From NCBI GenBank assembly GCA_021463485.1, contig JAJTYJ010000002.1, positions 108,638 through 172,637 on the forward strand: a DNA stretch of 64,000 nucleotides, read 5' to 3'. The notes under the pieces are model-generated. The model had not been told where the DNA came from and ran no database searches. It saw only the letters and a program-made list of their open reading frames with translations. The position numbers and the translations under genes were made by a program. Positions 19,694 to 42,404 of this stretch are shown here, piece after piece. The first letter of the stretch is position 1. Each line of letters begins with the position of its first letter. Origin of the DNA: a bacterium. Its GTDB lineage: Bacteria; Patescibacteriota; UBA1384; 2-12-FULL-50-11.

Positions 19694-19719
19694 TACTAAC
19701 TTTTTGGAAACAAATTTGT

Positions 19720-20632: not shown

Positions 20633-20944
20633 ATGACCGTTTTCCTACTAAAACTTGGTCTTTGGAATCTAGGTGTTCTTGTTTTATATTTATTGATCAC
20701 GGGCCTTGGTAAATATGAGAACACATTCGCTGGTGGCTTCGTCATATTTGCGCTTTATCTGTTTTACTTCGTGCCAATAACTATATTCAGTTTGTTTGGC
20801 CATTTTTTTCTAAACCACTCGATAGACCCAGAAGTTAAGCGTTACCTACTGTATAACGTGTACTTTTGGGTGGGAGTATATGTTTTGATGTGGTTGGTAT
20901 CGATTATTACCGGGGTTAATAAATGGTTTGGCGGGTCTGGATAA
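20633..20944 (+). CDS. Hypothetical small membrane protein
   Basis: 103 aa, 3-4 predicted TM helices. Confidence 0.35.
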   Translation: MTVFLLKLGLWNLGVLVLYLLITGLGKYENTFAGGFVIFALYLFYFVPITIFSLFGHFFLNHSIDPEVKRYLLYNVYFWVGVYVLMWLVSIITGVNKWFGGSG

Positions 20945-20986
20945 TGCGCTTAATTGCCATCGAGCGATATATGGTGTACCCTTTCT

Positions 20987-21760: not shown

Positions 21761-21804
21761 TTTATATCGATATCTAGGAACTGTATACCAGTATAGAATT
21801 GCCT

Positions 21805-22233
21805 CTATATTATTTCTATAATATAGGGTTGGCTTTCTATAATAACTAAGGGGTCTATGTCAAAAAAGCGCCCGGGTGCGACAGAAATCAAATCCGGTAC
21901 GTTTGTCGGCTCGCCCTGACCAGCACCACCACCTTCGTCATAAGCAAAATAGAGAAAGCCCTTTGTGGACATCATGTTTACTCCGTATTGGAGTTTGAGC
22001 TGTTGCCCGTCGTGTCGAGTGTCGAGCGTCACCGCTCGAATCTTCCCAGCCGGGATGATTTGGATAATGTCGCCAAGGGTGAAAGGCAGAGCGCCTTCCG
22101 AGAACCTGAGATCGCAGTCGCTGTCATATGTCTCGAGCTTTGCTCCGAGACGGTTGGCGAGCTCGTTGGCGAGTCTCTTGCATTCGTCGTGGGTAGATGA
22201 ATTGGCGAAAACGATTGACCACTGTTTTGTCAT
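21805..22233 (-). CDS. Hypothetical protein (GC-rich islet)
   Basis: 142-aa ORF with GC content higher than the flanks. The N-terminus is weakly flavodoxin-like. I could not confirm it. Confidence 0.3.
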   Translation of the reverse strand: MTKQWSIVFANSSTHDECKRLANELANRLGAKLETYDSDCDLRFSEGALPFTLGDIIQIIPAGKIRAVTLDTRHDGQQLKLQYGVNMMSTKGFLYFAYDEGGGAGQGEPTNVPDLISVAPGRFFDIDPLVIIESQPYIIEII

Positions 22234-22340: not shown

Positions 22341-22874
22341 ATGCACGTTACAACAGTTTGTTCTCTGGTCTATCTTTTCAGTGGCAACGTCGTCTGTCTG
22401 CCGAAATCGTTATCGGGCCCAACGAAGGGTAGGCGGAGCGGTTACGGCGGCAAGCAAGAGTCGGGCGAGACAATTCGCGAGTGCGCAATCCGAGAAACGA
22501 AAGAAGAGTCGGGTGGGATTCGAGTGTTGGAACTCGAGAAGCGAGGGGTGGTTACCTTCCACTGGGGCAGCAAGCAGGATGTTCCGGGTCTTAGCGTCGA
22601 GCGCTGTACGGACGTGGAAGTCCACGTCTACCGCTCTGATCTTTGGGAAGGAATCCCGATCGCCACAGATGCTTTTAGTGATCCGACTTTCTTTCCGATT
22701 GGCGAGATTCCGTATCACGAAATGATGCCGTGCGAAGAGCTGTGGTTCGCTCAGTTGCTGGCTGGAAATGAGTTCACGGCCGAGATGCACTTTCGCAAAT
22801 GCGACGGCAAGATTTTCTGTCGAGAAGGGCACTTGCACAAACGAGCCCGCCACGACCTACTCGCCAAGCCCTAG
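22341..22874 (+). CDS. NUDIX hydrolase
   Basis: The Nudix box GGKQESGETIRECAIRETKEESGG fits GX5EX7REUXEEXGU. GGAGG lies upstream of the ATG. A terminator follows. Confidence 0.7.
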   Translation: MHVTTVCSLVYLFSGNVVCLPKSLSGPTKGRRSGYGGKQESGETIRECAIRETKEESGGIRVLELEKRGVVTFHWGSKQDVPGLSVERCTDVEVHVYRSDLWEGIPIATDAFSDPTFFPIGEIPYHEMMPCEELWFAQLLAGNEFTAEMHFRKCDGKIFCREGHLHKRARHDLLAKP

Positions 22875-24676: not shown

Positions 24677-25056
24677 TACAGACGTACTTTGCTGCTTTAA
24701 CAAGCGGGACCTTTGTTTTACCTACCACGGGAACAAAGGAGCGTAATCGCGAACATTTCGCGGTTACAAGAACAAACCAGCCGATGGACTGGCAAATTTC
24801 CATCCCTTTCTCGGTAAAACGAGAGAGTGCCAAACAATTCCAAAAAAACAAAACAGTATGTCAGCTGAAATGATTTATCATTTCGCTCGTAAGGTTCAGT
24901 AGGCTTTTATGTGAGTTAAATCTCAAAGAGTTTGACGAAGACGGTTTCGGCCGTCGGACACAAATTTCTTACCAAAAGGTAAGAGTTTGATCTGAGCACA
25001 ATTCTTCTGAAGAGTGCGAAGACAAACTCTCATAAAAATCCCTACAGGAATTTTTA

Positions 25057-26505
<1,449 letters not shown>

Positions 26506-26596
26506 AGAGGAATCTAGATGTCGACTCCGATCTATATCGGAGAGATGCTACCAATATAGGTAGCGAAAACGTTCTTGTAACCGCAAAGTGTTTGAA

Positions 26597-26627
26597 AACA
26601 AAAAAGAGGCTAAAGCCTCTTTTTTGT
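26597..26627. terminator. Bidirectional intrinsic terminator between the convergent 16S and tRNA genes
   Basis: A-run, hairpin agaggc-taa-gcctct, T-run. Confidence 0.55.
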
Positions 26628-26637
26628 TGCATATTCG

Positions 26638-26836
26638 TGGGCGATACTGGACTCGAACCAGTGACCTCGTCATTATACGCTGAGCGAACCGTTCAAATTT
26701 TGTCTGTGCGCGTACCTGGACTCGAACCAGGGACCTCGTCATTATCAGTGACGCGCTCTAACCAGCTGAGCTATACGCGCAAGGACAAAATTTGAATGTA
26801 TCAGTGACGCGCTCTAACCAGCTGAGCTAATCGCCC
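26638..26836 (-). tRNA. Split/intron-containing tRNA-Ile(GAU)-like gene: 5' exon 26798-26836, 125-nt insertion 26673-26797 at position 37/38, 3' exon 26638-26672
   Basis: 5' part is GGGCGAT-T-AGCTCAGCTGGTTAGAGC-G-CGTCA-CTGATA. 3' part is A-TGACG-AGGTC-ACTGG-TTCGAGT-CCAGT-ATCGCCC-A. The acceptor pair (GGGCGAT/ATCGCCC) and the T-stem pair (ACTGG/CCAGT) are perfectly complementary to each other and differ from those of the nested gene. The insertion holds the complete tRNA-Ile above, bracketed by the inverted repeat TTCAAATTTTGTC / GACAAAATTTGAA. Confidence 0.5.
26707..26780 (-). tRNA. tRNA-Ile (anticodon GAU), complete 74 nt, nested inside the interruption of a second tRNA-Ile gene
   Basis: Minus-strand cloverleaf: acceptor GCGCGTA/TACGCGC, D-arm TAGCTCAGCTGGTTAGAGC, anticodon stem-loop CGTCA-CTGATAA-TGACG, T-arm CCTGG-TTCGAGT-CCAGG. 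No encoded CCA. Confidence 0.85.
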
Positions 26837-27001
26837 TCGTTTCACTCGGGCGTTGCTTCGCAATCGCCCAATGGGCCGTTACTTTCGTAATCGCCTAAAC
26901 TATTAACCTGCCTGCTGGTGGCAAGTTACCAAACAATTGTACCGAATAATTGTCGTTCTATCCAGGTTCAGTTGGGGTAAATAATATGGCATACTACCGA
27001 T

Positions 27002-27583
27002 ATGGTTGCCGAAGACGCCAAGAAAAAATTTTCACATAAACAGGCGCTACAGTTGGTCGGATTTATTCTGTTGTTTGGTCTTTTTGTTGGTGGAATCTCG
27101 GCAATTATGAATAAGTTTCTTGCGCCACACATCGAACCGTTAACCGATATTATTTCGTACCATCCGTTCCGAGCGTTGGCCGGATACTTTCTATTTGTCA
27201 TGATCGCCTCGGTGTTTGTACCGATTCCAACACTGCCGGTAGATTTGTTGTTTTTTGAATACGTTGACCCGACAAGCGTTATTGTCGCTCGAGTTCTCGG
27301 TGGGGTGGCTGGAGGGAGTATTAGCTATTATTTGGCCTATAACTACGGCCGACCGCTATTAAAGCGATGGCTATCGAGAAAAAATTACGATTTTGTCGAG
27401 GGTGTCTCGAACGCCGTGAGCTGGAAACAATTTTTCATTATCACTATGATTCCGATCATCAACGCAGAACTAATGGCGTTCGTTGGAGGTGTTGGGAAAA
27501 TTGGCTATCGAAAAACTATCGGAACGTTGCTACTTGCGATCGCGTACCGAGTCCTGTTCGTTTACGCTGTCATCCAACGTTAG
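27002..27583 (+). CDS. DedA/TVP38 (VTT-domain) family membrane protein
   Basis: 193 aa, multi-TM, with a conserved PIPTLPVDLL…G VTT-like core. Confidence 0.55.
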   Translation: MVAEDAKKKFSHKQALQLVGFILLFGLFVGGISAIMNKFLAPHIEPLTDIISYHPFRALAGYFLFVMIASVFVPIPTLPVDLLFFEYVDPTSVIVARVLGGVAGGSISYYLAYNYGRPLLKRWLSRKNYDFVEGVSNAVSWKQFFIITMIPIINAELMAFVGGVGKIGYRKTIGTLLLAIAYRVLFVYAVIQR

Positions 27584-28995
27584 CGGCGTTTAATAATAAT
27601 GGCGTTAGGCAGGCTCCGGCCCGGGCCAATTTTGTAACTACTATTAAACATCATCGCACTCGATCCGCCGCCGTCGACGTTGAGCGCGTAATCGACGTCG
27701 AGCGCGTCCATTACTGCGGACAAATCCGGAACTGTGGCGCTGGTTGCAATTACTAAGTAGAGCGTTTGGCCCTTTAGCCCGATCGCGCCTCGATTCGATT
27801 TTGTTGTGCGTTGCTTGTCATCGAGCGAGCCTTCGTCGAGAATATTATTGCCGTTACTAATTAATGCTGGTTTGCAGTTGATACCGGCGACTCCAGCAAA
27901 CCCCGAACCGGCGTAGCTGCTCCAGGATGAAAAATATCTAGCGGTACCGGCGGAGTTAAAAGCGATAAACGGGTCGTTTTCGCCTAAGCCGTTGTTAGCG
28001 TTAATCATTTTACTGAGACGAGTATTGAGCACTTTCCAGAAGAACGAGCCGACTTGGCCGGCGCACGCTGAGTAATCGGCGGGGCAAAAATAGGTACCGT
28101 TCATGCCGGCAAAGCCGCCGTTACCACTGACGTAACTACTTAAGCTTTTGGTCGGGCAGTTATCGGTGCAATCGTTGTCGTTAGCGGTATCGGTGCTAAC
28201 AGCAAACTGACCGCTAGCTAAGTTAAAGGTTGAGAGATGGATACTGAAGCTACCGCGACTGGTTGCGATCGATATTTTCTCATACTTACTGTCGCCGTTA
28301 GTGGTGGAGGTCGTGGTGGTCGTACTGGTTTTTGCTTGCGTCTTTGTAAGTGCCAAATTAAGCGTTGTTGTTTGCTGAGCTGTAATACTAACGCCGGTTT
28401 TTTTAACCGAATTGTAACCGCTCTTTGATGCTGTGAGTGTGTATGTCCCGGCCGTAATCGTAAAAGTATAAGCGCCGTCGGCGGCGCTTGTTGTGGTAGT
28501 CGTTGTTGTGCCGTCTGTAAGTGTTAGCGACACTCCTGAGAGAAGTTGTTCGCCTTCTTTCACTACACCAACAAGTATTCCGGATTGGCGCTGTAACTCA
28601 GCGACTCGATTTATCTCCGTTTGAGTGGCAATTAGTGTTTCAACCACGGCGACTTGATCGCGAATAGTGTTAAAATTTTCAATCGTTTTAGTCGGATCAG
28701 AAATCCGTGATTTAATTTCAACAATTACTTTCTCAAGCGCCGCGGTGTCAGCTCCGATTGCCTTAGCAGCGTCAACTTTTTCCTGAAGTGTCTTGATTGC
28801 GGCGACTAATTGTAATTGTGAGTTATGCTCCAGCTCAACAGCCAACTGCTGATCGAGGCGATCGCTTTGCTGTTTCTGCAGCACGCTCTGAGCTTGCAGC
28901 GAAGCGATAATTATCAGAAACGTTACGATCAGTGACAAGCCGCGCCACTTATGGCTATGAAGCTCGTTCGAAATTGGTTGGAATAACCGATGCAT
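27580..28995 (-). CDS. Membrane-anchored extracellular protein: coiled-coil, CarboxypepD_reg-like beta domain, C-terminal phosphodiester-glycosidase (DUF2233/NAGPA-like) domain
   Basis: N-terminal TM. The segment at ~40-130 is heptad-rich. The run TTTTTTTSAADGAYTFTITAGTYTLTASKSGYNSVKKTGV resembles a CarboxypepD_reg-like fold. Near the C-terminus, ALNVDGGGSSAMMF matches the DGGGSS hallmark of the phosphodiester glycosidase family. Confidence 0.45.
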   Translation of the reverse strand: MHRLFQPISNELHSHKWRGLSLIVTFLIIIASLQAQSVLQKQQSDRLDQQLAVELEHNSQLQLVAAIKTLQEKVDAAKAIGADTAALEKVIVEIKSRISDPTKTIENFNTIRDQVAVVETLIATQTEINRVAELQRQSGILVGVVKEGEQLLSGVSLTLTDGTTTTTTTSAADGAYTFTITAGTYTLTASKSGYNSVKKTGVSITAQQTTTLNLALTKTQAKTSTTTTTSTTNGDSKYEKISIATSRGSFSIHLSTFNLASGQFAVSTDTANDNDCTDNCPTKSLSSYVSGNGGFAGMNGTYFCPADYSACAGQVGSFFWKVLNTRLSKMINANNGLGENDPFIAFNSAGTARYFSSWSSYAGSGFAGVAGINCKPALISNGNNILDEGSLDDKQRTTKSNRGAIGLKGQTLYLVIATSATVPDLSAVMDALDVDYALNVDGGGSSAMMFNSSYKIGPGRSLPNAIIIKRR

Positions 28996-29038
28996 GATCG
29001 TATTGTAACCGAAACGATGCGTTGCTACGGTTGGTCTG

Positions 29039-29974
29039 ATGAATATTCAGGAGAACGTCTCACTTGCTAACTACACAACGTTTAAAGTGGGTGGTCCGGC
29101 AAGGTATTTCTGCAACGTCGAAACGATCGAAGAGTTGCGTATGGCGCGTGATTTTGCCAATTCTAAAAACTGCCCGATCTTTGTTCTTGGCGCCGGGAGT
29201 AACGTGATTGCCTCGACAGCTGGTTTCGATGGGCTTGTTATTCACATCGATTTCAACTCAATTGAAGTAGACGGCAGGGTTATCCGCGCTGGTTCTGGAA
29301 GCCAGATGTACGATTTAGTTGACACGGCAGTTACGGCTGGGTTAGTTGGCCTGGAATGGGCGGGAGGACTGCCCGGAACGTTTGGCGGAGCGATTCGCGG
29401 TAACGCCGGCGCATTTAAGGGTGAAATTAAGGATACTATCCAATTCGTAACAGCGTTCTCTACTGCAACTGGCGAGATAAAGATTTTCGATAACCCCACG
29501 TGCGAGTTTGAGTATCGGGAAAGTTACTTTAAACGTCATCCGGTATGGGTGATTCTTAACGCAGAGTTATTGTTGAGTTCTGGTAACACTGAACAACTAC
29601 GATCGATCGCTGACGAACATATCGAGTTTCGTAAAACCAGACACCCACTCGAATATCCTAACGCTGGGTCGATGTTTAAAAATGTTCCGATCCAGACGAT
29701 CCCAACAGCAACGATGGAATTATTCAAAGACTTTGTAAAAATCGATCCGTTTCCAGTAGTCCCGACGGGCAAGATTATTCAAGACGCGGGGCTGAAAGGC
29801 TACCAAGTTGGGGGAGCGCAAGTTTCAGAAAAACACTGTAATTACATCGTTAACCGCGGTAACGCCAGTGGAGAGGATATACACCAGTTGGTGCTTGAGA
29901 TTAAAAAACAAGTACACGATAAATTTGGGATAAAGCTCGAGACTGAGCCGGAATTTCTCGGGTTTGACACTTGA
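29039..29974 (+). CDS. murB: UDP-N-acetylenolpyruvoylglucosamine reductase
   Basis: FAD-binding PCMH domain (GAGSNV). Catalytic blocks GGAIRGNAGAFKGEI and NAGSMFKN are present. Length is 311 aa. Confidence 0.88.
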   Translation: MNIQENVSLANYTTFKVGGPARYFCNVETIEELRMARDFANSKNCPIFVLGAGSNVIASTAGFDGLVIHIDFNSIEVDGRVIRAGSGSQMYDLVDTAVTAGLVGLEWAGGLPGTFGGAIRGNAGAFKGEIKDTIQFVTAFSTATGEIKIFDNPTCEFEYRESYFKRHPVWVILNAELLLSSGNTEQLRSIADEHIEFRKTRHPLEYPNAGSMFKNVPIQTIPTATMELFKDFVKIDPFPVVPTGKIIQDAGLKGYQVGGAQVSEKHCNYIVNRGNASGEDIHQLVLEIKKQVHDKFGIKLETEPEFLGFDT

Positions 29975-30030
29975 TTCTTAGGTTTATCTGTGATAGTATT
30001 GCTCTCGTTTCGCACATCAAGGAAGAAAGT

Positions 30031-30495
30031 ATGAACACAGCATTTTTGCTTCTCGCGTTGCTTGGCGTTGGCCAACCCCAACCCGTCTCTGCGCCGGTTT
30101 ACCAGAAACGAATTCTGGTGATCCTCGACCTCCAGAAGGTCTACGCCTTTGAAGGCGACAAGCTTGTCTTCGAGTTAAAGTGTTCAACGGGCCGCAAGGG
30201 TCTTGAGACGCCGTTCTCCACAGGCGAGCCATACAAGATCACCGCGAAAATTCCGGTCGGCAAAGCCTTGCCGGAGCTCGGCGGCGCCACGCTGCACTGG
30301 CAGATGAGGGTGCCGATGTACGACCCTAAACAAAAACGGGTCCGTCGGATCGGCTTTCACGCCTATCACGACGTGCCGGACTTTCCGGCATCGAGCGGAT
30401 GCATCAGGCTCAAAAAGCCTGATGCAAAGAAGCTGTTTGATTGGGCAGAGGTCGGCGTACCCGTCTGGGTGCACGAGACAGTGCCCATCTGCTAA
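30031..30495 (+). CDS. L,D-transpeptidase (YkuD domain), secreted, GC-rich
   Basis: Start taken at MNTAFLLLALLG, with AGGAAG upstream. Catalytic signature FHAYHDVPDFPASSGCIRL (H…SxGC[IV]R). GC is clearly above the genome background. Confidence 0.75.
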   Translation: MNTAFLLLALLGVGQPQPVSAPVYQKRILVILDLQKVYAFEGDKLVFELKCSTGRKGLETPFSTGEPYKITAKIPVGKALPELGGATLHWQMRVPMYDPKQKRVRRIGFHAYHDVPDFPASSGCIRLKKPDAKKLFDWAEVGVPVWVHETVPIC

Positions 30496-30522
30496 CGCTT
30501 TCCGTCCTCCGTTCCACCTCCA

Positions 30523-30551
30523 CCCGGGCTTCGGCCCGGGCTTTTTTATTG
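30523..30551 (+). terminator. Rho-independent terminator
   Basis: cccgggcttcggcccggg hairpin plus TTTTTTATT. Confidence 0.65.
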
Positions 30552-30555
30552 CCAA

Positions 30556-31017
30556 TACTTGACGAGAGGGTGTATTATTTTCTCACGGTTCACGACATGA
30601 ACTGTGTTCTTTCGACTGTGTGGGAGTTGAGGGTATGATAGCGACTTTAACTGTTGCAGTGGCGATTCAGTTCGCCGTACCGGCAGCATTGCCGAATCTC
30701 ATCACTTCCGCACCTCGCCGAGTGATCGTAACCAGAAACAGTACGGAGGCTGTTCTACCAAGCGGCTCGAGTGCACTTTCGAGCGACCGGCGTCCACAAA
30801 ACGCCGCCGTTATCGGACCTCGCCGCCAGACCCGTGCTTTGACTACTCCCAGGACGAGACCGTCTCAGGGAAGAGTGATCACCTACGAGGTGCCCGGCAC
30901 TTGACGGTGCCCCCAGAAGTCCAGGAATGGGCACGCTGGGGGCACCCCTTCCAAAGCTTGAACCTCCTTGTGGAGCCGAGCTCCCCCCGAACCATCCGGT
31001 CTCGGGGGATTTTTTAT
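30556..31017 (+). other. GC-rich promoter-to-terminator unit of unknown function (candidate leader RNA, ncRNA, or 94-aa secreted peptide gene 30620-30904)
   Basis: TTGACG at 30559. A strong intrinsic terminator (ccccccgaaccatccggtctcggggg plus T-run) sits at 30983-31017, immediately before the start codon of the next gene. There is an internal perfect 11-bp inverted repeat, ggtgcccccag…ctgggggcacc (30906-30945). The best ORF has an RBS but encodes a low-complexity basic peptide. Confidence 0.3.
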
Positions 31018-31031
31018 AGTAAGATACGGAC

Positions 31032-31544
31032 ATGCTTACCGTTCCCCATGCGCTTACTGGTGTTGCAATCGGCGTACTAGTAAAAGACGCTACAGCTGCA
31101 CCGCTTGTTGCCTTTGGTCTGGGCTGGGCGTCGCATTATGTGCTCGATACAATCCCGCACTGGGAGCGTTTGTACCGACCGCACGACGAAATTAAATTTG
31201 ATACGGATCAATCGGCGCGCGATTGGCCAAAGCACATCTTTGTCCAAGCAGTCTTAGACGTACTGATAGCTACTGGGCTGATTTTGTGGATCTATCAAAG
31301 CAGAGCTGAAGTTGGGAGCGTGATGCTTTGGGGCGCGTTAGGTGCCGTGTTACCGGATTTGCTCGATAACGTGCCGTTTTGGAATAGAACGCTTCGCCGT
31401 TTACCGTTCTTCTCGCAAGAACAGAAATTTCACGACTCAATTCATATTAACGAAGAAACGCAGCGACAAGTGCCAAAAATCTTAGGGCTTCTAACGCAAG
31501 TAACCGTTGTTGCTATTAGTCTGTTTATTATTTTCGCCGCGTAA
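31032..31544 (+). CDS. Membrane-bound metal-dependent hydrolase-like protein (YdjM/DUF457-like), tentative
   Basis: 170 aa with 4 TM helices and a His-rich N-terminal block HYVLDTIPHWERLYRPHDE. Confidence 0.3.
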   Translation: MLTVPHALTGVAIGVLVKDATAAPLVAFGLGWASHYVLDTIPHWERLYRPHDEIKFDTDQSARDWPKHIFVQAVLDVLIATGLILWIYQSRAEVGSVMLWGALGAVLPDLLDNVPFWNRTLRRLPFFSQEQKFHDSIHINEETQRQVPKILGLLTQVTVVAISLFIIFAA

Positions 31545-31569
31545 TCGGTGCTTCTGCTAGACTTACGAT

Positions 31570-31770
31570 ATGGGGATAATTCTCAAAATAATTGTACTGA
31601 TTGTCGGGCTGGCAGCGGGAGTAGCGATGCTGACACATAGTTATCAGTTAACACATCTATTCGGTTATAACTCGCTCGCTGAACGCTACCTTGGTACGGA
31701 TGGAACATACTCGATGTGGAAGATCCTCGGCGCGCTGACGATCATCGGAGCCGTTTTATATGTTTTTTAG
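31570..31770 (+). CDS. Hypothetical small membrane protein
   Basis: 66 aa with two TM helices. The 3' end overlaps the next ORF. Confidence 0.3.
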   Translation: MGIILKIIVLIVGLAAGVAMLTHSYQLTHLFGYNSLAERYLGTDGTYSMWKILGALTIIGAVLYVF

Positions 31771-32122
31771 AAAAGTACTGACTTGGATAGTATTTGTAGC
31801 GTTCTTTACGTTCGTCTTATTGATGTTTGTGACTCCCATTTTCCCAATTTTTAGCTGGGCACTGCCGTTAACAGCTGGGGATGGACAGTACATTATTTTC
31901 TTCGTCCTTGTATTGTTAATCTCGTTGCTCTCGCTTGCTCAAAAAATTGATTTTTGGCACGAAGCAAAGACCCCAAAGATTTGGGACGGTACAGAGGTTC
32001 CAAACAGCGCTAAGCCTATGATGTCCAAAATAATTTCGGCTGCAATTTGGTACAACATTGGTGTATCGGTGCTTTTTATACTAATCGCCATTGTTGGATT
32101 AGGTATCGTAATTACTCGATAA
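31760..32122 (+). CDS. Hypothetical membrane protein
   Basis: 120 aa with 3 TM helices. Confidence 0.3.
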   Translation: MFFRKVLTWIVFVAFFTFVLLMFVTPIFPIFSWALPLTAGDGQYIIFFVLVLLISLLSLAQKIDFWHEAKTPKIWDGTEVPNSAKPMMSKIISAAIWYNIGVSVLFILIAIVGLGIVITR

Positions 32123-32157
32123 TCTCCTTCGGATTAGATATAATACATAAGACTTTT

Positions 32158-32219
32158 GGGCCGTTAGCTCATCGCGAGCATAAGCGAGCGAGAGTAACGG
32201 CCCGAGTGCTAGCTCGGGA
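32158..32219 (+). repeat. Hairpin pair carrying a 15-nt duplicate of the tRNA-Ala 5' end (GGGCCGTTAGCTCAT)
   Basis: GGGCCGTTA…TAACGGCCC forms a 9-bp stem (32158-32204). It is followed by the palindrome cccgagtgctagctcggg. The first 15 nt are identical to nt 1-15 of tRNA-Ala, which lies 116 nt downstream. Confidence 0.4.
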
Positions 32220-32273
32220 GTTAGCTCATATTGAAACTTTATGTTGAGATAGGGCAAGGCACGAACGAAGTAA

Positions 32274-32346
32274 GGGCCGTTAGCTCATTTGGTAGAGCGC
32301 CGCATTTGCACTGCGGAGGTGTGGGGTTCGAATCCCCAACGGTCCA
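32274..32346 (+). tRNA. tRNA-Ala (anticodon UGC)
   Basis: Cloverleaf: acceptor GGGCCGT/ACGGTCC with the G3:U70 Ala identity pair, anticodon loop TTTGCAC, T-arm TGGGG-TTCGAAT-CCCCA. 73 nt, no encoded CCA. Confidence 0.9.
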
Positions 32347-32354
32347 CAACAAAA

Positions 32355-32382
32355 TTAAAGAAAAGCCCCTTGCGGGGCGGAT
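32355..32382 (-). terminator. Rho-independent terminator for the minus-strand dcd-like gene
   Basis: On the minus strand, gccccgcaaggggc is followed by TTTTCTTT. Confidence 0.55.
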
Positions 32383-32383
32383 G

Positions 32384-33388
32384 TTATGACTCCCATGGTC
32401 GGAACTGCTTGGCAAGCGTAATGCCTTGCTGCCCTTGGTAGTGTGACTTACTGCGATTTGCAGAGTTCTCGCCGTAAACTTGGTCTGGTACGTCATCGAG
32501 GCGTTCGAAACGCAGGATACTTATGCGTCGTCCATTCGCCAGCTGTGCGGCACCAGCACCAACGTTGGTGATCTCACAGACTATTGTTGAGCCGTTGAGC
32601 TCGCCATGTCGTCCGTGCCCGAAGCCAGGATCTATGAAGCCGGCATCGTGATAGCGGATTTCGCCATGAGCGGGATTGAACGGCATCATTTCAGCGCAGT
32701 AGCCCGGTGGAATCCGAACGTGTTCACGCGTTCTTGCCAATGCGAATTGCCTTGGTTCGAGATGGATAATGCCGCGGGCATCAAGTCCCTTGTCGTAAAA
32801 GTATTGTCCCGGATACTGAGAACGTCTTTCCCAAAGGGGGAGAGTTCTGCGAGTGTCGTGAGCGACCAAGATCGCCGGTTCTCCGGTCAAATCCAAATGG
32901 AGCATCATTCCCTCGTCGCAGAAAACCGGCTCGCAGTCAGTATTTCCGATTAGAGGCGACTGTCTATGAAGGTGTTCAAGCTCCCAACCCTGGAGAAATC
33001 GTCGCTTGCCACTGACAATCCTCAGTTGAGCCAGCGTCTCCGTTTGGCGGATATTGACCGGGAAAATGCGCGGCGTAATAAGCAAGTACAACTTGCCTCT
33101 ATAGCCGGCTGGAACTGCGTCAAATTCCTTACCGTTCTCGCAGATGAGCTTGCAGTGGATCGCGTTGCGGCCCGTTGAACTTTTCGGATTGGCGAAAGCT
33201 GAAAGCGTCGAAGGCAGGTGGCACTCCATATCTAGTTGCGCTAGGTATGTCTGGCCTGGTGAAAGCGTCAGCGACTTCCCATCGAAGTTGTTGAGATCAA
33301 ACTTCGTTTGTTGGTAATGCTTGATGAAGAACTTTTCGATAGTGACGTTTGCACTGAGGTCTGGTTCTCCGGCGACTAGACGGATCAC
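32384..33388 (-). CDS. dCTP deaminase/dUTPase-superfamily protein, long (334 aa) form, GC-rich
   Basis: The C-terminal block YHDAGFIDPGFGHGRHGELNGSTIVCEITNVGAGAAQLANGRRISILRF matches the Dcd/dUTPase beta-barrel motif (GxIDPGF…E…N…QL). GC is high. Confidence 0.5.
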   Translation of the reverse strand: MIRLVAGEPDLSANVTIEKFFIKHYQQTKFDLNNFDGKSLTLSPGQTYLAQLDMECHLPSTLSAFANPKSSTGRNAIHCKLICENGKEFDAVPAGYRGKLYLLITPRIFPVNIRQTETLAQLRIVSGKRRFLQGWELEHLHRQSPLIGNTDCEPVFCDEGMMLHLDLTGEPAILVAHDTRRTLPLWERRSQYPGQYFYDKGLDARGIIHLEPRQFALARTREHVRIPPGYCAEMMPFNPAHGEIRYHDAGFIDPGFGHGRHGELNGSTIVCEITNVGAGAAQLANGRRISILRFERLDDVPDQVYGENSANRSKSHYQGQQGITLAKQFRPWES

Positions 33389-33574
33389 GTTCGTGATCGG
33401 CAGATCGATTGATGCGGCCTGGATGTATTGGGGGCGACAACCAAAGACGGTCGGCTGCCCTCGGTAAGACTACGAATTTGTTTGTCGACTAAGACTCCCA
33501 TAGTTGCTCCTGATTGTGATGTGCGACTGCACTGCCGACAGTATATCCGTTAGTGGCTGAATATCAATGAGTAT

Positions 33575-33603
33575 AAAAGAAACCGCCCTTACGGGCGGTG
33601 GGT
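33575..33603 (-). terminator. Rho-independent terminator (minus strand)
   Basis: ccgcccgtaagggcgg hairpin followed by TTTCTTTT on the minus strand. Confidence 0.55.
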
Positions 33604-34038
33604 CTGGTCTGGCACGTTTGTGAGATCTTGAATCTCACGGACGTACCAGAGATGGTCGTCGTTGGGAGGCTTGACCTCCGATGCCGCGTAAACGAGGCGG
33701 TAGTCGTTCAGCATTGCTCTGATCTCGGCCTGCTCGCTGAAGCTAATTTCGCGACAGCCCGAACTTAAGATTGAGTAGAGCCTTGTCAGCTGCGCGTCAA
33801 TCAGTTTCAGGAAATTGAAGAGGATGACCACGTCTTGGCCTCTTAACCCCTTGCCTCGCTGTTCGAGCTCGGTGCGCATATTGATGAGCGCGTGGCAGGC
33901 GCCGCACAGGTGTTGCCCGAGTTTGTCAGTTCGAGTCAGTTCACGCACGAGGACGTCGCCGTGATTAGTTGAATCCGCCGCTTGTTGGGGCACTGCGGCG
34001 AACAAGTTCTGAATGAATCGCCAGATGGAAAGGAACAT
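33589..34038 (-). CDS. Hypothetical protein (GC-rich island)
   Basis: 149-aa ORF with high GC. I recognise no family. Confidence 0.35.
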   Translation of the reverse strand: MFLSIWRFIQNLFAAVPQQAADSTNHGDVLVRELTRTDKLGQHLCGACHALINMRTELEQRGKGLRGQDVVILFNFLKLIDAQLTRLYSILSSGCREISFSEQAEIRAMLNDYRLVYAASEVKPPNDDHLWYVREIQDLTNVPDQTHRP

Positions 34039-34170
34039 TTTTCACCTCACGCCGAACCGTTGTGCATAGTTTACCTAATTTTAGTTGGTATGTCACCGGT
34101 TTTACACTAAATACTCTGGATTTTCTTATTAGTTCTCGCTAGAATGCCCTAGCACATTAATAGGAGTGGA

Positions 34171-35007
34171 ATGAACAGTCTCACGCTAACGCATTCAGTA
34201 ACCATCAAGGGTCGAAACTTATTTGGCCTGCCGTCAAGCATTACCTTTCATCCGGGACCGCTCGATAACCCGGGTTGGTATTGGCTAGATCGCGGTCGAC
34301 TTGTACCGATCACTAGCGTCATGGCAACGACGAAAAAACGCCGGATCGTGTTGGAGATGAGCTTCACCAAGCAGCTCCAAGTGTTCGAGCATATCGGATT
34401 TCTGCGCTGGATGGGGTTTAGTAACCTCGTGATTGAAGCCAATGGTTGGCCGCCGTTTTGCGGCGGGGCGCTGTTCTACTACGAACGTCTGCGAGGAGTA
34501 GCGGTTGTAAGATCCGAGAAAGTCTCGCACCGCACGGTTACCGGTCTTTGTGACTGGATTTACCCTCAAAAAAGGCAAGAGCGATGGGGGGTCGAGATCT
34601 GGCCCGGGAATAGCCCGACGCTGCAGATCAACATCGAGTGCGACTTTCCTGGGGAACTCGGCAAGTTCAGTAAAGAGCTCTCACTGCCAAACGACGATTT
34701 ACTAATGGAAATCCTTCAGGCGAACACTGTCGGGTTACCCCACTGGCTCTACTGGCCAGCACGAGCTCTGCTGCCAAGAAAGTCTCGATCAATCGGCTGG
34801 GTTAAACAACTCGGCGTTGAGCAATTCCGAGAACGAATGCTGCTGCATCGAGCGCAAGATCTGCTAGGTGCACTGAGTTTTCTCTGCGACGGCAACCATC
34901 TATTCGCCGGTAGCGTTAAATCTCGGTGCGCTGGTCATGAGGCAGATATCTACGCTGTTCGCGACGCTTCGACGAAGCTCCGTTCGCTTTCCGTTCAGTT
35001 GCGCTAG
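34171..35007 (+). CDS. LpxC-family (UDP-3-O-acyl-GlcNAc deacetylase-like) zinc amidase, GC-rich
   Basis: It aligns block by block with LpxC. The N-terminal stretch TLTHSVTIKGRNLFGLPSSITFHPGPLDNPGWYWLDRGRL corresponds to LpxC TLKRIVQATGVGLHTG…RRTDL. VFEHIGFL…NLVIEANG…PPFCGG covers the EH and DGSA blocks. LLHRAQDLLGAL corresponds to HKMLDAIGDL (the HxxxD zinc site). CAGHEAD carries the second His. GGAGTGG lies upstream of the ATG. Confidence 0.6.
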   Translation: MNSLTLTHSVTIKGRNLFGLPSSITFHPGPLDNPGWYWLDRGRLVPITSVMATTKKRRIVLEMSFTKQLQVFEHIGFLRWMGFSNLVIEANGWPPFCGGALFYYERLRGVAVVRSEKVSHRTVTGLCDWIYPQKRQERWGVEIWPGNSPTLQINIECDFPGELGKFSKELSLPNDDLLMEILQANTVGLPHWLYWPARALLPRKSRSIGWVKQLGVEQFRERMLLHRAQDLLGALSFLCDGNHLFAGSVKSRCAGHEADIYAVRDASTKLRSLSVQLR

Positions 35008-35014
35008 GCACCGC

Positions 35015-35878
35015 CTAGCGCTTTTTTTGACAGTCTGGGCAAAAATGACTTGATCGGCCGGCGATTTTAATCCGTTCGATCGGTGTACCACAGACGGTGC
35101 AAGGCATCCCTTCTCTTTTATAAACGTTGGCGACGGCTAGATAGGTTCCCATTCTGCCGTCCGCTTGTCGGTAGCTCTGGCTGCTGGTACCGCCGTGCTT
35201 TAAGGCTTTATTAAGTACTGTTGGGATATTTTTGAAAATTGTTTGGATTTCGTTCGGTTCTAATTCATTTACTCTAGTTTGAGGATGAATTCTCGATAAA
35301 AATAGCGTTTCGTCGGCGTATATATTTCCGATCCCAGCCACAATTGTTTGATCTAGGAGTAATTGTTTGACGGTAATTGTTTTTTTACGAGCCAGTTTTT
35401 TCGTAAAATACTCAAGTGAAAATTCAGGCCAGTCGTATTCTGGTCCTAGCGTATGAACGTGCGGCTCAATTTGTTCGGCAGAATCCACCACTTTAATCCA
35501 ACCGAACTTGCGAAGATCGTTGAAATAAAGTTTACCGTGATCTAACTCAAAAATTACATGAGTGTGTTTATGTGGTAGAGAAAACGAGTACGCCGGGTCT
35601 GGGTGACCGCCGACTACCATATCTTGTTCGGTTGCGCCATTGGGAACAAATATCAGCTGTCCAGTCATTTTTAAATGTATAAGCAAGAAACTGCGTTCAA
35701 GTTTGATAATTAATATTTTGGCCCGTCGAGCGATTTCGACAACTGCTTGGTTGGTAATAGTTTCGGGATTGCCAAAGAACAGTTTTTTACCCCGAACATC
35801 GACCGAACGAATTCGATGTCCAACCAACATTTTTTCTAATCCGACCCGGATGGTTTCAACCTCTGGTAGTTCTGGCAT
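35015..35878 (-). CDS. fpg: Formamidopyrimidine-DNA glycosylase
   Basis: N-terminal MPELPEVE with catalytic Pro2, an H2TH region, and a C-terminal zinc finger CTVCGTPIERIKIAGRSSHFCPDCQ. The true start is taken at the second Met. Confidence 0.9.
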   Translation of the reverse strand: MPELPEVETIRVGLEKMLVGHRIRSVDVRGKKLFFGNPETITNQAVVEIARRAKILIIKLERSFLLIHLKMTGQLIFVPNGATEQDMVVGGHPDPAYSFSLPHKHTHVIFELDHGKLYFNDLRKFGWIKVVDSAEQIEPHVHTLGPEYDWPEFSLEYFTKKLARKKTITVKQLLLDQTIVAGIGNIYADETLFLSRIHPQTRVNELEPNEIQTIFKNIPTVLNKALKHGGTSSQSYRQADGRMGTYLAVANVYKREGMPCTVCGTPIERIKIAGRSSHFCPDCQKKR

Positions 35879-35960
35879 TTGAGGGGATTGTGGCAAAAAC
35901 GAGGGTAAAAAAATAGGGCGGCTCCGCAGTTGTCTGCGTGCCGCCCGGTGAGCCGAAGCT

Positions 35961-37136
35961 CTAGTTGATGGTGATCTCGACCTTGACGGTGTGGGGCCAG
36001 TGGTCCGCGATCGCCGACCAAACGTCGTAGCCGGCGAACGCCCAGTTGTAGAAACCAGGTTCGAGCGTCATCGTCTCGTTGTTGGCGAAGGTCAGTGTGA
36101 TGTTGGTCTCGTGCCACCCCGGGTTGCCGTTGTCGAACATCAACTGCGCCACGCTTTCGAGCCCGTTGGCTACGAATAGCGATTGGAAGTTCATGTCGTC
36201 GAGACGACAAACACGGTGAGTTGTCGAGCGCCCGTTGGCGTTGACGACGAGGTTGATCCACTGCGTCTCGCGAGTTCGTTCGACGAGGATGCCCGTGTTT
36301 CGATCTTGAGCGATACCACCCTGGAATTCTCCGGCCGGGACTGCCAACTTGAAGCTACCCCAGAAGGGATCTCTGACAAAGGCAACCACTCGGGCTGGTG
36401 AAACCGGCATACCGTTGAACGGTGAGCCGTCCCAGTTGAGTGGATGACCAAAGCCAACTGACTCGTTCTTGTTGAGATCGTGCGTCAGTGTTCCGATCGC
36501 GAACATCTTCACTAGCGGGCCGTCGAACGGCACAACTGCCATTGACTTGCCGGCGATCAGCTCAAAACCCGGTCCGCCACGAGTGGCTGCGTGGGCTTGA
36601 CTGGTCGGACCAGCGTCGATGAAGTGGATGTTGCTCTCCTTGAACTTGTTGACTGCGCGATCCGACACCCCAACGCCGAACCATGCCAACTTTGTCTGGA
36701 ATGACTGGTTCGAAGCGCTGGCTTGACGGCCGACTGCACTGAGCATCTTGTCTACCGGCGTAATGAGGACGTTGTCCCCACCGTAGGAGCCGGAGAGGGC
36801 TCCGATAGTGTGGCCGTCTGGTGTCAGGATCGGAGATCCCGAATCGCCGAAGCCGAATTTGGCGTCTGAGTCCTTGAAGGTCAGATAGTCGTTGGCGCCC
36901 GCAGTGTAGCGGTTGCCGAGCGTGATAGGAACGAAGACGATCCCACTCTCACGTTCGACCATGGCGAACGCGCGGTCACCGGCCTTGAGGGCGTTGATTT
37001 GGGTAGTGGTGAGGGGGACATCGCGAAAGGCGATGTTGGTGTTGGAACCGCTTCCGGTACCAGCACCGTTGCCTCCGCAGCCGACGAGGAGGAGGGCAAT
37101 CAGGATTGCCACGATGGATTGCGTAACTTTCTTCAT
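35961..37136 (-). CDS. Lipoprotein of unknown function carrying a GDSGSP motif (not a canonical chymotrypsin-fold protease)
   Basis: Lipobox MKKVTQSIVAILIALLLVGC. GDSGSPILT occurs only about 70 residues after the signal peptide. No His precedes it. GC is high. Confidence 0.45.
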   Translation of the reverse strand: MKKVTQSIVAILIALLLVGCGGNGAGTGSGSNTNIAFRDVPLTTTQINALKAGDRAFAMVERESGIVFVPITLGNRYTAGANDYLTFKDSDAKFGFGDSGSPILTPDGHTIGALSGSYGGDNVLITPVDKMLSAVGRQASASNQSFQTKLAWFGVGVSDRAVNKFKESNIHFIDAGPTSQAHAATRGGPGFELIAGKSMAVVPFDGPLVKMFAIGTLTHDLNKNESVGFGHPLNWDGSPFNGMPVSPARVVAFVRDPFWGSFKLAVPAGEFQGGIAQDRNTGILVERTRETQWINLVVNANGRSTTHRVCRLDDMNFQSLFVANGLESVAQLMFDNGNPGWHETNITLTFANNETMTLEPGFYNWAFAGYDVWSAIADHWPHTVKVEITIN

Positions 37137-37263
37137 GTTCAGGTTCGATCCTCCCGATGGTTCGGGTAACTCCGTTGAGTCGCGAGGAATAGTACCTGAA
37201 ACTACTTAAAAAGTCAATCAGTTAGGACGATATTTTACGTGTAAAAAAATACCCCCGAAGGGG

Positions 37264-38088
37264 TTAGTTGATCCGAGTCATGAGAACGGTCGCTTTCTGC
37301 GGCCGCTTTTCGTCTGGGTCGGTGGTGTTGTACTCGTAGCGAGCGTCATCCGAGCGTAGCTCTTTGCAATCGGCGCTCAATGTGAACGTGCCAAGGATTT
37401 GGGCAAACGACGGTTTACTACCGTACTTGAGCAGGAATTTGAATTTCCCGTCTTTGCTGGCGTTACCGTGAACTTTGCCTTTGCGCCAATCGCCGTCGTC
37501 GTAGGTGCCAAGTATCCGATAATTGTCGCTGATCGTGAACTCGATCGGGTGATCGGTGCCTGTTAATACGTACTTACCTTTCCAGTCAGCGATAAGCGAC
37601 GGCTGAGCCAAAAATTTATCTTTGGCAGTAGTGCGATCCCCGACACAGTCGAGATTGGCTTGATACTGGTTTGAACCGTGCACGAACACCATCGTGCAGG
37701 CTGGCCAGCCGCTGTCGTCTCGAACAACTTCGCCGGTTGCCTTAATCTCGCCGTCAGCGAACTTTAGAACTGGTTGGAGTGTAGATCCGACCGATCTTCC
37801 ACTAATCGTAAACGGTTTTAAGCCGTCTTTTGTCCAAAGCGCCCCGCGACCGTCTAACCGATACACGATCTTGCCGTTTTCACGTCCAGACTCCTGCGTA
37901 AATCGCAGATCGTCGAACTGCCCGGCGAAGCCGTTAGTGACCCAGTGCCCGTTGATCGGACTAAAGGCGACCAACTGCTTGATCAGCGCGTCGTCAGACG
38001 ACGCCGAACTGGTCTTTGGAGTGGCGCATCCGCAAAGAAGGAGAAGGAGCGCAAAGCGCGCGGTTGTTGCTAATACTGAGAAGTGCAT
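37264..38088 (-). CDS. Hypothetical lipoprotein
   Basis: Signal plus lipobox …LLLLCGCATP. 274 aa, no recognised domain, high GC. Confidence 0.4.
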   Translation of the reverse strand: MHFSVLATTARFALLLLLCGCATPKTSSASSDDALIKQLVAFSPINGHWVTNGFAGQFDDLRFTQESGRENGKIVYRLDGRGALWTKDGLKPFTISGRSVGSTLQPVLKFADGEIKATGEVVRDDSGWPACTMVFVHGSNQYQANLDCVGDRTTAKDKFLAQPSLIADWKGKYVLTGTDHPIEFTISDNYRILGTYDDGDWRKGKVHGNASKDGKFKFLLKYGSKPSFAQILGTFTLSADCKELRSDDARYEYNTTDPDEKRPQKATVLMTRIN

Positions 38089-38168
38089 ACTGTCACCTCG
38101 CCCAATTGGGCGTTGCTCTATTCAAGCATTCTTGAACAAAACGAGCAAATACTTCTATATAGAACGAT

Positions 38169-38604
38169 GGAAATAAAAATTGCTCGAATTCGTGATAGTG
38201 TCGAAGTACCGAAGTACGTTCCCGAGTCTGCGGCTTGTTTCGATCTTCAAGCAGCCGAGTCGGTCACGGTAAAACCAAACGAAGTAGTAAAAGTTCCTTC
38301 GGGGTTAATTGTTCATGTGCCACCAGGTTACTTATTGGCGATCGCGCCACGCTCAAGCGCTCCAAAATACGGTATTAGTATGCCGCACTCGTTTGGAATT
38401 ATCGATCCGACGTACTGCGGCCCAGAAGACGAAATATTAATTCAGATTCAAAATCGAACCGAGAAACCGATCGAAATTGAGCAGGGACAGAGGATCGCGC
38501 AAGGATTCTTTGTGGAGGTTCCAAGGGTAATTTGGAAAGAGGTTACTAAAGATGAGCTAGCGCCAAATTCGCGCGGCGGTTTCGGCTCAACTGGTGCCGT
38601 TTAA
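38169..38604 (+). CDS. dut: dUTP diphosphatase
   Basis: Start taken at MEIKIARI. The dUTPase motif-3 block is GIIDPTYCGPEDEILIQIQN. A terminator hairpin follows. Confidence 0.8.
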
Positions 38605-38889
38605 TTACAGCTACCGTTCCTAACGCAGAGTCTTGACGCAATATGCGCAAATATGGGACAATCACCAGGTACATGTTAGGAAAAACACAAGGAGGCGTCG
38701 GTTTATAAGAGACCACTATTTTGGGGTCACCTTAGAAGCCGCTCGCCAAAGCGGTTTTTTCTTACCTCTGATGAATACTTAACAACTAGGTTTCCAAGCT
38801 GAAGTCGAAGACAATTCGACGACAGCACAACTTCAGATATGGTTCCATAATCATATTTGAAGCAAGTAACAGCAACGCGAAAGCGTTAG

Positions 38890-41838
<2,949 letters not shown>

Positions 41839-42272: not shown

Positions 42273-42391
42273 ATCTTGGTGTCTCGAGCGACAGGGGTAC
42301 ACCTCTTCCCATTTCGAACAGAGAAGTTAAGCCTGCCAGCGCCGATGATACTCAGGGCTAACAGCCCTCGGGAAAGTAGGCCGACGCCAAG
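42273..42391 (+). rRNA. rrf: 5S ribosomal RNA
   Basis: The terminal helix pairs tcttggtgtc with gacgccaaga. Internal blocks cccatttcgaacagagaagttaagcc and cgccgatgatact match the 5S consensus. Length is about 119 nt. Confidence 0.85.
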
Positions 42392-42404
42392 ATAAAGAGT
42401 TTAA

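Follow-up and report, generated by a model that had tools for sequence, protein, structure and literature searches.

The question raised by this locus is whether a set of GC-rich genes situated between the genes for 16S and 23S rRNA of a patescibacterial genome is a foreign island or a part of the lineage's own gene content. The DNA analyzed, referred to here as the window, is a 64-kb stretch (48.1% GC) of contig JAJTYJ010000002.1, from a Patescibacteria (Candidate Phyla Radiation, CPR) genome of about 0.7 Mb. An initial annotation, made from the letters of the window alone, had singled out two stretches of the rRNA spacer, 29971-31030 and 32384-38100, as GC-rich, as encoding functions atypical of a reduced genome, and as suggestive of horizontal acquisition, possibly from a high-GC Gram-negative donor, with tRNA-Ala as a classic integration target. 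Patterns detected in related genomes point to a different origin, and we consider it probable that the flagged genes are variable accessory occupants of an anciently split rRNA locus and belong to the clade's own gene pool. Under this explanation a skeleton of native composition (VTT, MurB, m170, m66, tRNA-Ala, fpg and dut) would alternate with three slots whose contents vary between species and among conspecific strains. Judging from the breakpoints, turnover would proceed through homologous recombination on conserved flanks and deletion between short repeats rather than site-specific island integration, and the high GC would be mainly a property of third codon positions that orthologues have kept over long divergence.

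The 16S-23S gap is 12,394 bp (26503 to 38898), or about 12.4 kb, well beyond the distance of more than 1500 bp between 16S and 23S by which Brewer et al. (bioRxiv 10.1101/705046) recognize unlinked rRNA genes, a condition they found to be common and phylogenetically conserved in Patescibacteria/CPR. As in their clades, the split state here is conserved across related genomes. The locus differs in that the canonical order 16S, tRNA-Ile, tRNA-Ala, 23S, 5S is preserved with protein genes lodged between the elements (orientation survives as well for 16S, tRNA-Ala, 23S and 5S), in that the gap holds a defined, conserved set of protein genes with variable slots, and in that tRNA-Ile is inverted and nested in part of this clade. 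The closest named genome is 'Patescibacteria group bacterium BroJett034' (BOKZ01000001.1, a 685-kb contig), with 99% protein identity to the MurB encoded in the spacer and about 96% DNA identity to the window; MurB in other genomes of the species-level collection had at most 34% identity. An independently assembled contig of 12,705 bp (run SRR17318679) was 100% identical to window positions 26800-39500 and covered the whole spacer, so that a single molecule carries both native and GC-rich genes, and the mosaic was not created by assembly.

Uniform composition was not seen in windowed analysis; the compositional anomaly is real and well localized. In 300-bp windows GC was 54-60% at 30000-31200, about 47-55% at 32250-35100 and about 49-60% at 35850-38100, and sliding windows showed a trough of 39-43% over fpg. 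The initial annotation was thus right about a localized excess and too high as to its level, which is 53-58% against 47-48% rather than 58-60% against about 45%. Its first stretch, 29971-31030, corresponds almost to the base to a real unit that comes after the stop codon of MurB (29974), finishes short of where m170 starts (31032), and is missing from two related loci (L038 and L039). Its second, 32384-38100, does contain GC-rich genes but is not uniform, since fpg lies inside it with native composition. The predicted YkuD protein, long dCTP deaminase (DCD), fpg, two lipobox proteins and intrinsic terminators were all found, and each GC-rich gene has its own terminator-like hairpin.

When GC was broken down by codon position, the excess of the GC-rich genes amounted to +0.175 at third positions (GC3), +0.049 at first positions and +0.007 at second positions. 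There were six such genes (YkuD, DCD, h149, h278, lipo391 and lipo274; values in Table 1), and their GC3 differed from that of 38 genes outside the spacer (mean 0.475, standard deviation 0.056, maximum 0.629; Mann-Whitney p = 1e-6), while VTT, MurB, m170, m66, fpg and dut, also in the spacer, could not be told apart from this background (p = 0.63). GC3 above 0.55 occurred in 6 of 8 variable (slot) genes versus none of 7 core (skeleton) genes (Fisher p = 0.007). High GC3 was also kept in orthologues across a range of 45-78% protein identity, that is, even at 45%, where synonymous sites are saturated; shared values of 0.73-0.76 would therefore reflect either a maintained property or repeated supply from one pool, and the retention argues against recent, un-ameliorated import. 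We infer that high GC3 is a standing feature of these genes, presumably near equilibrium, rather than the fading trace of one recent transfer.

The second line of evidence comes from the same locus in related genomes, which were represented by short contigs (loci with L numbers; percentages in brackets are identities to the window). In L020/L021 (16S 94.5%) the order was 16S, tRNA-Ile on the minus strand, VTT, NAGPA, MurB, ..., m66, tRNA-Ala, Ndk, ThyX, Tmk, DCD (73%), fpg, four small open reading frames (ORFs) and 23S. Read from the other end, L035 had 23S, dut, fpg, ..., YkuD, DCD (51%), Tmk, ThyX, ..., Ndk, tRNA-Ala, m66 and MurB; L030 had 23S, dut, lipo274 (72%), a lipo391-like gene (45%), fpg (82%), h278 (78%), a beta-lactamase, ThyA, DHFR and dCMP deaminase; and L028 had 23S, dut, lipo391 (70%), fpg (72%), ThyA, DHFR and dCMP deaminase. 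The most distant, L041 (16S 88%), carried 16S, tRNA-Ile on the plus strand, VTT, MurB (55%), YkuD (54%), m170, m66, tRNA-Ala, ..., dCMP deaminase, DHFR and ThyA, and in L038 and L039 m170 directly followed MurB. A conserved skeleton of 16S, tRNA-Ile, VTT, MurB, m170, m66, tRNA-Ala, fpg, dut and 23S thus recurs down to 88% 16S identity, suggesting that both the split locus and its skeleton are old. Between its members there are three variable slots, after MurB (slot 1), from tRNA-Ala to fpg (slot 2) and from fpg to dut (slot 3), and the GC-rich genes occur only in these slots. For five of the six GC-rich genes (DCD, YkuD, h278, lipo391 and lipo274) the nearest homologues were at this same locus in related Patescibacteria. 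Best homologues therefore fall in the same lineage as those of the housekeeping genes, which speaks against a high-GC Gram-negative donor, and the encoded functions are not atypical of the lineage, relatives having YkuD, DCD, fpg and dut at this locus too.

Turnover could be followed most closely among three strain types, A (the window), B (loci L022-L027, at least 99.95% identical to each other and from several runs) and C (BroJett034). In strain C a 4.4-kb cassette of six genes, encoding a histidine phosphatase, a cytidylyltransferase, dCMP deaminase, a HIT protein, DHFR and ThyA, stands in place of the 1.16-kb DCD segment (window 32348-33588 versus L003 13314-17757). Alignment of the junctions placed one breakpoint between A and C at the final base of tRNA-Ala and the other at the start codon, indicating that DCD and ThyA use the same upstream segment with its promoter-like site and AGGAG. 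Slot 2 was occupied by DCD, beside dut, in the window, strain B, L020 and L035, and by dCMP deaminase, ThyA and DHFR in BroJett034, L028, L030 and L041. DCD is the first gene of a DCD-Tmk-ThyX operon in L020 and L035; it stands alone in strains A and B, and none of ThyA, ThyX, Tmk, Ndk, DHFR and dCMP deaminase turned up when the 64-kb window was searched. Two classical routes to dUMP, by dCTP deaminase plus dUTPase or by dCMP deaminase, are described in PMC10733785, which gives the dCTP-deaminase route as typical of Gram-negatives. From the encoded families it appears that slot 2 carries interchangeable routes to dUMP/dTMP, either a predicted dCTP deaminase with its adjacent dUTPase or dCMP deaminase with ThyA and DHFR. 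Like the classical alternatives, one or the other is present; in contrast to them, the alternation here is between strains about 94-96% identical and on the same promoter, with a frameshifted DCD allele in the window. There was also replacement within the cassette: the ThyA of strain C was 95% identical to that of L030 and only 35% to that of L028, with DHFR about 80% identical to both, ThyA having been replaced by a xenologue in L028. On this view of slot 2, an episymbiont-type genome of about 0.7 Mb keeps a hotspot for swapping dTMP-precursor pathways among its strains, which bears on the balance of salvage and synthesis in CPR.

Further signs of turnover were found in slot 3 and in strain divergence. 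Strain B is without a 1.3-kb (1327-bp) segment bearing lipo391, corresponding to window 35916-37241 and lying between TAAAAAAATA direct repeats; as L028 and L030 carry the gene at the same site, it is simpler to suppose that B lost it through deletion between the repeats. Divergence between A and C, measured per 300-bp block, was 0-0.3% beside blocks of 5-14%, with substitutions piling up on different strain branches gene by gene, fpg included. Mosaic divergence of this kind, together with the breakpoints of the swap, would be the marks of homologous recombination on conserved flanks. There was no integrase or recombinase, nor a remnant of one, among the main spacer ORFs in searches of Pfam, NCBIfam, PHROGs and PADLOC. 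A repeat search gave no att-type repeat of the tRNA-Ala 3' end, the sole tRNA-Ala repeat being a 15-nt copy of its 5' end upstream. Similarity to plasmid and phage DNA was confined to a short stretch over tRNA-Ala and one 97-bp plasmid match of 75.5% identity inside DCD, and the spacer gave no phage, plasmid or defence signal. The suggestion that tRNA-Ala serves as an integration target therefore holds in so far as a variable cassette adjoins its 3' end exactly, but the integrase and att repeat that would go with it were looked for in the spacer and not found. Likewise, of the proposed horizontal acquisition, what stands is a separate history prone to gain, loss and replacement, and what does not stand is the donor, the recency and the site-specific mechanism.

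Flexible or replacement islands are core-flanked hotspots, often next to a tRNA, with contents that vary from strain to strain within a species and are exchanged by homologous recombination in their flanks. The locus resembles them in its conserved flanks, in genes that some strains have and others do not, in alternative cassettes that occupy one site without being homologous, in its mosaic divergence and in having a tRNA on one side. It differs in that the accessory genes are GC-richer than the core, where the usual pattern is AT-richer, and in that the cargo belongs to central nucleotide metabolism rather than surface or defence functions and sits inside the rRNA locus of a genome of about 0.7 Mb. 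The resemblance to tRNA-targeted integrative islands and prophages, which have a tyrosine integrase and attL/attR sites, extends to deviant composition and a variable segment starting at the tRNA 3' end; in contrast to them there is no integrase or remnant and no 3'-end direct repeat, and a promoter and start codon common to both cassettes form the opposite border. The locus thus adds a further case to known kinds, as an unlinked rRNA locus that doubles as a flexible-gene hotspot. Its unusual features are GC-rich rather than AT-rich accessory genes, the strain-level swap of dTMP-precursor pathways, an apparently CPR-specific LpxC-like enzyme and the nested tRNA-Ile.

An alternative explanation, possible although we think it considerably less likely than membership in a shared accessory pool, is that the genes are simply native and that a local force lifts their synonymous GC, either GC-biased gene conversion in a hotspot or selection for sense-strand mRNA structure in genes mostly encoding exported proteins. 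Concentration of the excess at third positions, its retention in diverged orthologues and the visibly recombinogenic nature of the locus would all be accounted for. So would sense-strand folding, for which z-scores from shuffles, inflated where window composition is heterogeneous, were strongly negative for YkuD (plus strand -6.7, minus strand -2.8), lipo391 (minus strand -5.0, plus strand -0.7) and lipo274 (minus strand -3.3, plus strand -0.2). Trigger factor and PGK, expected to be highly expressed, had GC3 of 0.41-0.42, inside the background range, which makes general translational selection unlikely. Against such a force, h278 and h149 are without excess mRNA structure, fpg lies between recombining slots and is itself mosaic and yet has the lowest GC3, and for a gene-conversion bias in this lineage there is no direct evidence. 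Accessory genes that remain GC-richer than the core over long divergence are the reverse of the usual pattern and would offer a test case of GC-biased gene conversion versus selection.

Ancient or repeated import into the clade from an unsampled source of higher GC, for instance GC-richer relatives among the Patescibacteria, mobile elements of these or a high-GC host, with amelioration incomplete or the supply renewed, is a slightly weaker contender, and we regard it as unlikely. It is consistent with the observation that the GC-rich genes are exactly those prone to gain and loss, with related spacers reaching 52-53% GC (L028 and L035), and with the 35%-identical ThyA xenologue of L028. According to PMC12455944, horizontal gene transfer in Patescibacteria is mostly among Patescibacteria, and this too was counted in its favor. 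No donor was found, however, and those homologues of lipo391 (7) and h278 (6) that were examined were all in CPR-like contexts. GC1 and GC2 are near native while GC3 is strongly raised, unlike a gene in the middle of amelioration; GC3 should decay first in the model of Lawrence and Ochman.

Returning to the clade's own gene pool as the source, several points weigh against it, some of them also favoring import. Substitutions polarized among the three strains showed an excess of GC-to-AT over AT-to-GC changes in h149 (23:7) and h278 (55:29), as amelioration predicts; no such excess was seen in YkuD (15:19) or fpg (42:62), and recombination confounds the polarization. The lipo391 allele of L030, at 45% identity, is far more diverged than its flanks at 72-85% and could be a separate import rather than a product of fast evolution. 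Not all variable genes are GC-rich, GC3 being 0.43 in m120, 0.51 in NAGPA and 0.49 in the beta-lactamase of L030. The GC3 excess itself has candidate causes, namely GC-biased gene conversion in a recombination hotspot, mRNA-structure selection and repeated supply from GC-richer relatives. DCD homologues outside the clade are 33-40% identical and spread across many phyla, which would allow a deep origin of DCD or LpxC outside the CPR, h149 has no homologue outside the species, and the relatives were compared over short contigs.

That one or more islands were recently acquired from a Gram-negative donor of high GC and integrated at tRNA-Ala or close to it, we judge very improbable. The excess in GC and GC3 and deviant codon usage are real, the variable cassette does adjoin the tRNA-Ala 3' end, and LpxC and dCTP deaminase are classically Gram-negative functions. 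This would not account for closest relatives in the same CPR clade at the same locus, for the lack of an integrase, of a tRNA 3'-end duplication and of plasmid or phage similarity, or for high GC3 common to orthologues at 45-78% identity; and in the swap both promoter and start site are shared, which is what allelic replacement through homologous recombination would give. Assembly or binning chimerism, with GC-rich contigs of another organism joined between rRNA genes, may be set aside with near certainty, even though rRNA-flanked regions are error-prone in metagenome assemblies and Logan contigs break exactly at rRNA and tRNA repeats, as the alternation of GC-rich and native genes was present on single contigs from at least eight independent samples and on the 685-kb NCBI contig, with the same mosaic in several related species. 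The main value of the comparison may be corrective: an island by a tRNA in a reduced genome looks like foreign import, and the relatives point to a flexible set of the lineage's own. GC deviation alone would mis-assign both donor and timing.

Table 1. Features of the split rRNA locus, in window coordinates, with GC3 for the window and, in brackets, for relatives.
Feature	Position	Strand	GC3	Match or layout	Class and occurrence
16S rRNA gene	25052-26503	+		Rfam RF00177, 1450 bits	left border of split rRNA locus
Nested tRNA-Ile	26637-26836	-		resident tRNA-Ile(GAU) halves 26836-26799 (5') and 26676-26637 (3'), split by 122-bp insert	
Inner complete tRNA-Ile(GAU)	26706-26780	-		inside the insert, flanked by 13-nt inverted repeats TTCAAATTTTGTC / GACAAAATTTGAA	
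VTT/DedA-family membrane protein	27002-27583	+	0.49	Pfam PF09335	core; syntenic in L020, L039, L041
Secreted NAGPA / carboxypeptidase-regulatory-domain protein	27580-28995	-	0.51	Pfam PF09992, PF13620	in L020, not in L039, L041
MurB	29039-29974	+	0.48	Pfam PF02873, PF01565	core
Secreted YkuD L,D-transpeptidase	30031-30495	+	0.70 (L041 0.61)	Pfam PF03734, E = 9e-15	variable, slot 1
GC-rich (57%) transcription-unit-like segment	30585-31016	+		promoter-like site 30549-30578; own terminator ~30984-31016	
m170 membrane protein	31032-31544	+	native	weak YdjM/PLC-like match	core-like
m66 small membrane protein	31570-31770	+			conserved core; tblastn matches in L020, L035, L038, L041
tRNA-Ala(UGC)	32274-32347	+		3' end is exact left breakpoint of cassette swap (junction alignment)	
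Long-form dCTP deaminase (DCD_N/DCD/DCD_C)	32384-33501	-	0.57	Pfam 1e-25 to 4e-33	variable, slot 2
Promoter/ribosome-binding-site segment common to both cassettes, and h149 terminator	33502-33588	-		promoter-like site 33567-33540; terminator 33599-33582	right breakpoint of swap
h149 orphan protein	33589-34038	-	0.69		strains A, B, C only
h278, predicted divergent LpxC-fold zinc deacetylase	34171-35007	+	0.59 (L030 0.53)		
fpg (MutM)	35015-35896	-	0.39 (relatives 0.47-0.52)	Pfam; 43% GC	core; in L020, L028, L030, L035
lipo391 cassette	35916-37241	-	0.73 (L028 0.73; L030 0.76)	terminator, gene 35961-37136, upstream region; bracketed by direct repeat TAAAAAAATA	
lipo274 lipoprotein	37264-38088	-	0.62 (L030 0.61)	lipobox in translation	variable, slot 3
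dut (dUTPase)	38167-38604	+	native	Pfam PF00692	core; beside 23S in all relatives
23S rRNA gene	38898-41835	+		Rfam	right border
5S rRNA gene	42275-42392	+		Rfam	right border

The tRNA-Ile at the left of the spacer deserves separate mention. The resident gene is split in the anticodon loop after CTGATA, with a 3-nt overlap (ATA) at the junctions, and the region folds with z = -5.0. In BroJett034 the tRNA-Ile is uninterrupted, and L041 and L038 have a single tRNA-Ile co-oriented with 16S, while L020 (14210-14480) has the same nesting to at least two levels with different inverted repeats. A group I intron was considered for the insert and rejected, 122 bp being too short, and the arrangement matched no intron type in the survey of tRNA introns in Patescibacteria by PMC13011429, which has none at position 37/38. 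It is conceivable, though we would not expect it, that all of these features belong together. The split rRNA locus would then be a dedicated recombination hotspot that swaps whole non-homologous thymidylate-precursor pathways between conspecific strains on a shared promoter, lineage-restricted accessory genes would be kept GC3-rich by a local force, for example GC-biased gene conversion, and tRNA-Ile would have been struck repeatedly by a unit of about 120 bp in which short inverted repeats enclose a whole replacement tRNA-Ile and which goes into the anticodon loop. If so, the unit would be a previously undescribed kind of tRNA-targeting mini-element, with one nesting level in the window and at least two in a sister species.

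There were also partial copies of the tRNA-Ala 5' end upstream of that gene (32158-32229), with GGGCCGTTAGCTCAT, an exact copy of 15 nt, at 32158 and GTTAGCTCAT again at 32220. The copy at 32158 forms a hairpin with TAACGGCCC at 32196-32204.

The LpxC-like protein h278 had, as a single sequence, no Pfam match at E < 0.01, and a word-indexed search of 5.8 billion proteins found 6 detectable relatives, 4 of which (P0130-P0133) carry PF03331. A profile of h278 with these 6 relatives matched LpxC structures in the PDB (Aquifex and others; 1p42 and 6ih0) at E = 4.6e-11 over residues 8-271, the full length, and the residues invariant in the family (E73, H74, H226, D230 and H256) fall on the Aquifex LpxC motifs EH, HxxxD and GH in the alignment. 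The initial label of LpxC-like deacetylase, which direct comparison to Pfam would not have sustained, thus gains support from the family profile and the catalytic residues. The likeness to LpxC (PF03331, the UDP-3-O-acyl-GlcNAc deacetylase of lipid A synthesis) covers the full-length profile match and the zinc ligands and catalytic residues in Aquifex numbering; the differences are that h278 is below Pfam detection and that its clade is tiny and apparently CPR-borne. The one distant relative examined (L032 8001-8822) was on a CPR-like contig with DUF5671, LAGLIDADG and small genes at 36% GC, and on this basis h278 and its relatives are apparently a small clade of predicted LpxC-fold deacetylases specific to the CPR. 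CPR genomes have been described as without lipid A genes, lpxC included (PMC5220378), and the substrate of h278 is therefore probably different; no lpx genes were seen in the 64-kb window. An LpxC-like protein with apparently intact catalytic residues is unexpected in such a group, and is, like the nested tRNA-Ile, a concrete lead. The neighboring h149 had no match in Pfam, NCBIfam, PHROG or PADLOC and was not similar to the genes that L030 and L028 carry in its place.

The DCD allele of the window has a 1-bp deletion in a homopolymer run (33430-33434), which shifts the reading frame between the first 23 codons, with the ATG at 33501, and the 334 codons that follow. The three DCD domains (PF06559, PF22769 and PF22569) are present but not in one intact frame, and the gene may be inactivated or phase-shifted, to judge from its reading frames. 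An intact allele of 372 aa in strain B (P0001) is 98% identical to that of the window and scored 217.6 bits against the NCBIfam equivalog PRK07559, under the 283-bit cut-off. Since dCTP deaminases can act in defence, a defence system was considered and rejected, PADLOC giving no match for any of ten proteins; a phage origin was also rejected, with PHROGs giving only a generic dCTP-deaminase match.

In slot 1, YkuD scored 56 bits against PF03734 (cut-off 23.4 bits) and its translation contains the catalytic motif H...ASSGCIRL with SxGCIR intact. Its third-best match, P0136 (54% identity), the only one with readable genomic context, lies in L041 in the order MurB-YkuD-m170; the gene is missing from this slot in L038, L039 and L020. 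Orthologues of m170 directly follow MurB or YkuD in L038, L039 and L041. The segment that follows YkuD at 30585-31016 is likelier to be a non-coding transcript, or a relic, than to encode a protein. It is called as an ORF of 89-94 aa and has terminators on both sides, and its fold z was -4.5 on the plus strand versus -1.4 on the minus, with adjacent YkuD and other coding windows equally negative. Comparison of the four near-identical copies available showed the last ~175 nt to be invariant in 4 strains and variable sites to number 2/8/3 over the codon positions of the called ORF. For the small GC-rich ORFs with their own intrinsic terminators that had been proposed here (30620-31033), the terminators are borne out and coding behavior is not. 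Against Rfam the segment had no match at gathering score, weak ones (E 0.05 or worse) covering only the terminator hairpin, and against viral contigs the 430-nt unit had no match. The possibility of a decayed C-terminal domain of a longer YkuD was rejected, there being no similarity to a 288-aa relative.

MurB was present in every related locus covering its position and was deleted in one strain B contig (L022). That contig (7799-7812) is without window 27585-30370, comprising NAGPA, MurB and the first two-thirds of YkuD, and joins VTT to the YkuD 3' end through a 13-nt filler; L023 of the same strain keeps YkuD and MurB. Either a subpopulation has truly lost a peptidoglycan gene or the contig is an assembly variant.

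In slot 3, the word-indexed search of 5.8 billion proteins found 7 detectable homologues of lipo391, and those examined were all between dut and fpg. Alignment showed an invariant GDSGSP motif, which hints at a serine-protease-like barrel. The structure model had a predicted local distance difference test score (pLDDT) of 55 and a predicted template-modelling score (pTM) of 0.42, too poor for its Foldseek matches (HtrA/DegP, elastase and superantigen-like; template-modelling scores at most 0.5, mostly at most 0.35) to be trusted, and these were rejected. An orthologue of lipo274 with 72% identity occurs in L030, and there was no tblastn match (E <= 1e-2 or 1e-3) in L028, L020 or L035. Pfam, PHROGs and NCBIfam scans gave no family match for lipo274, and lipo391 was likewise without family assignment.

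A few observations concern the rRNA genes and the surroundings of the spacer. The 16S gene of L041, 88% identical to that of the window, carries an insertion, about 830 bp long and close to the 3' end (L041 2962-3793), that the window 16S is without; insertions in CPR rRNA genes are known. Synteny with BroJett034 stops near 22150, and upstream of this point the two (window 18885-22150 and L003 1-3300) are unalignable, with about 50% mismatch. At this breakpoint there is a NUDIX gene (22341-22874) with GC3 of 0.63, and NUDIX genes also occur in the L035 spacer. Further upstream, the minus strand of 11818-18423 holds an ORF of 2201 aa, and 6001-11818 holds four ORFs of 326-369 aa without Pfam match and a Big_1 / CarboxypepD_reg surface protein; window 6001-18423 is probably a cell-surface gene cluster.

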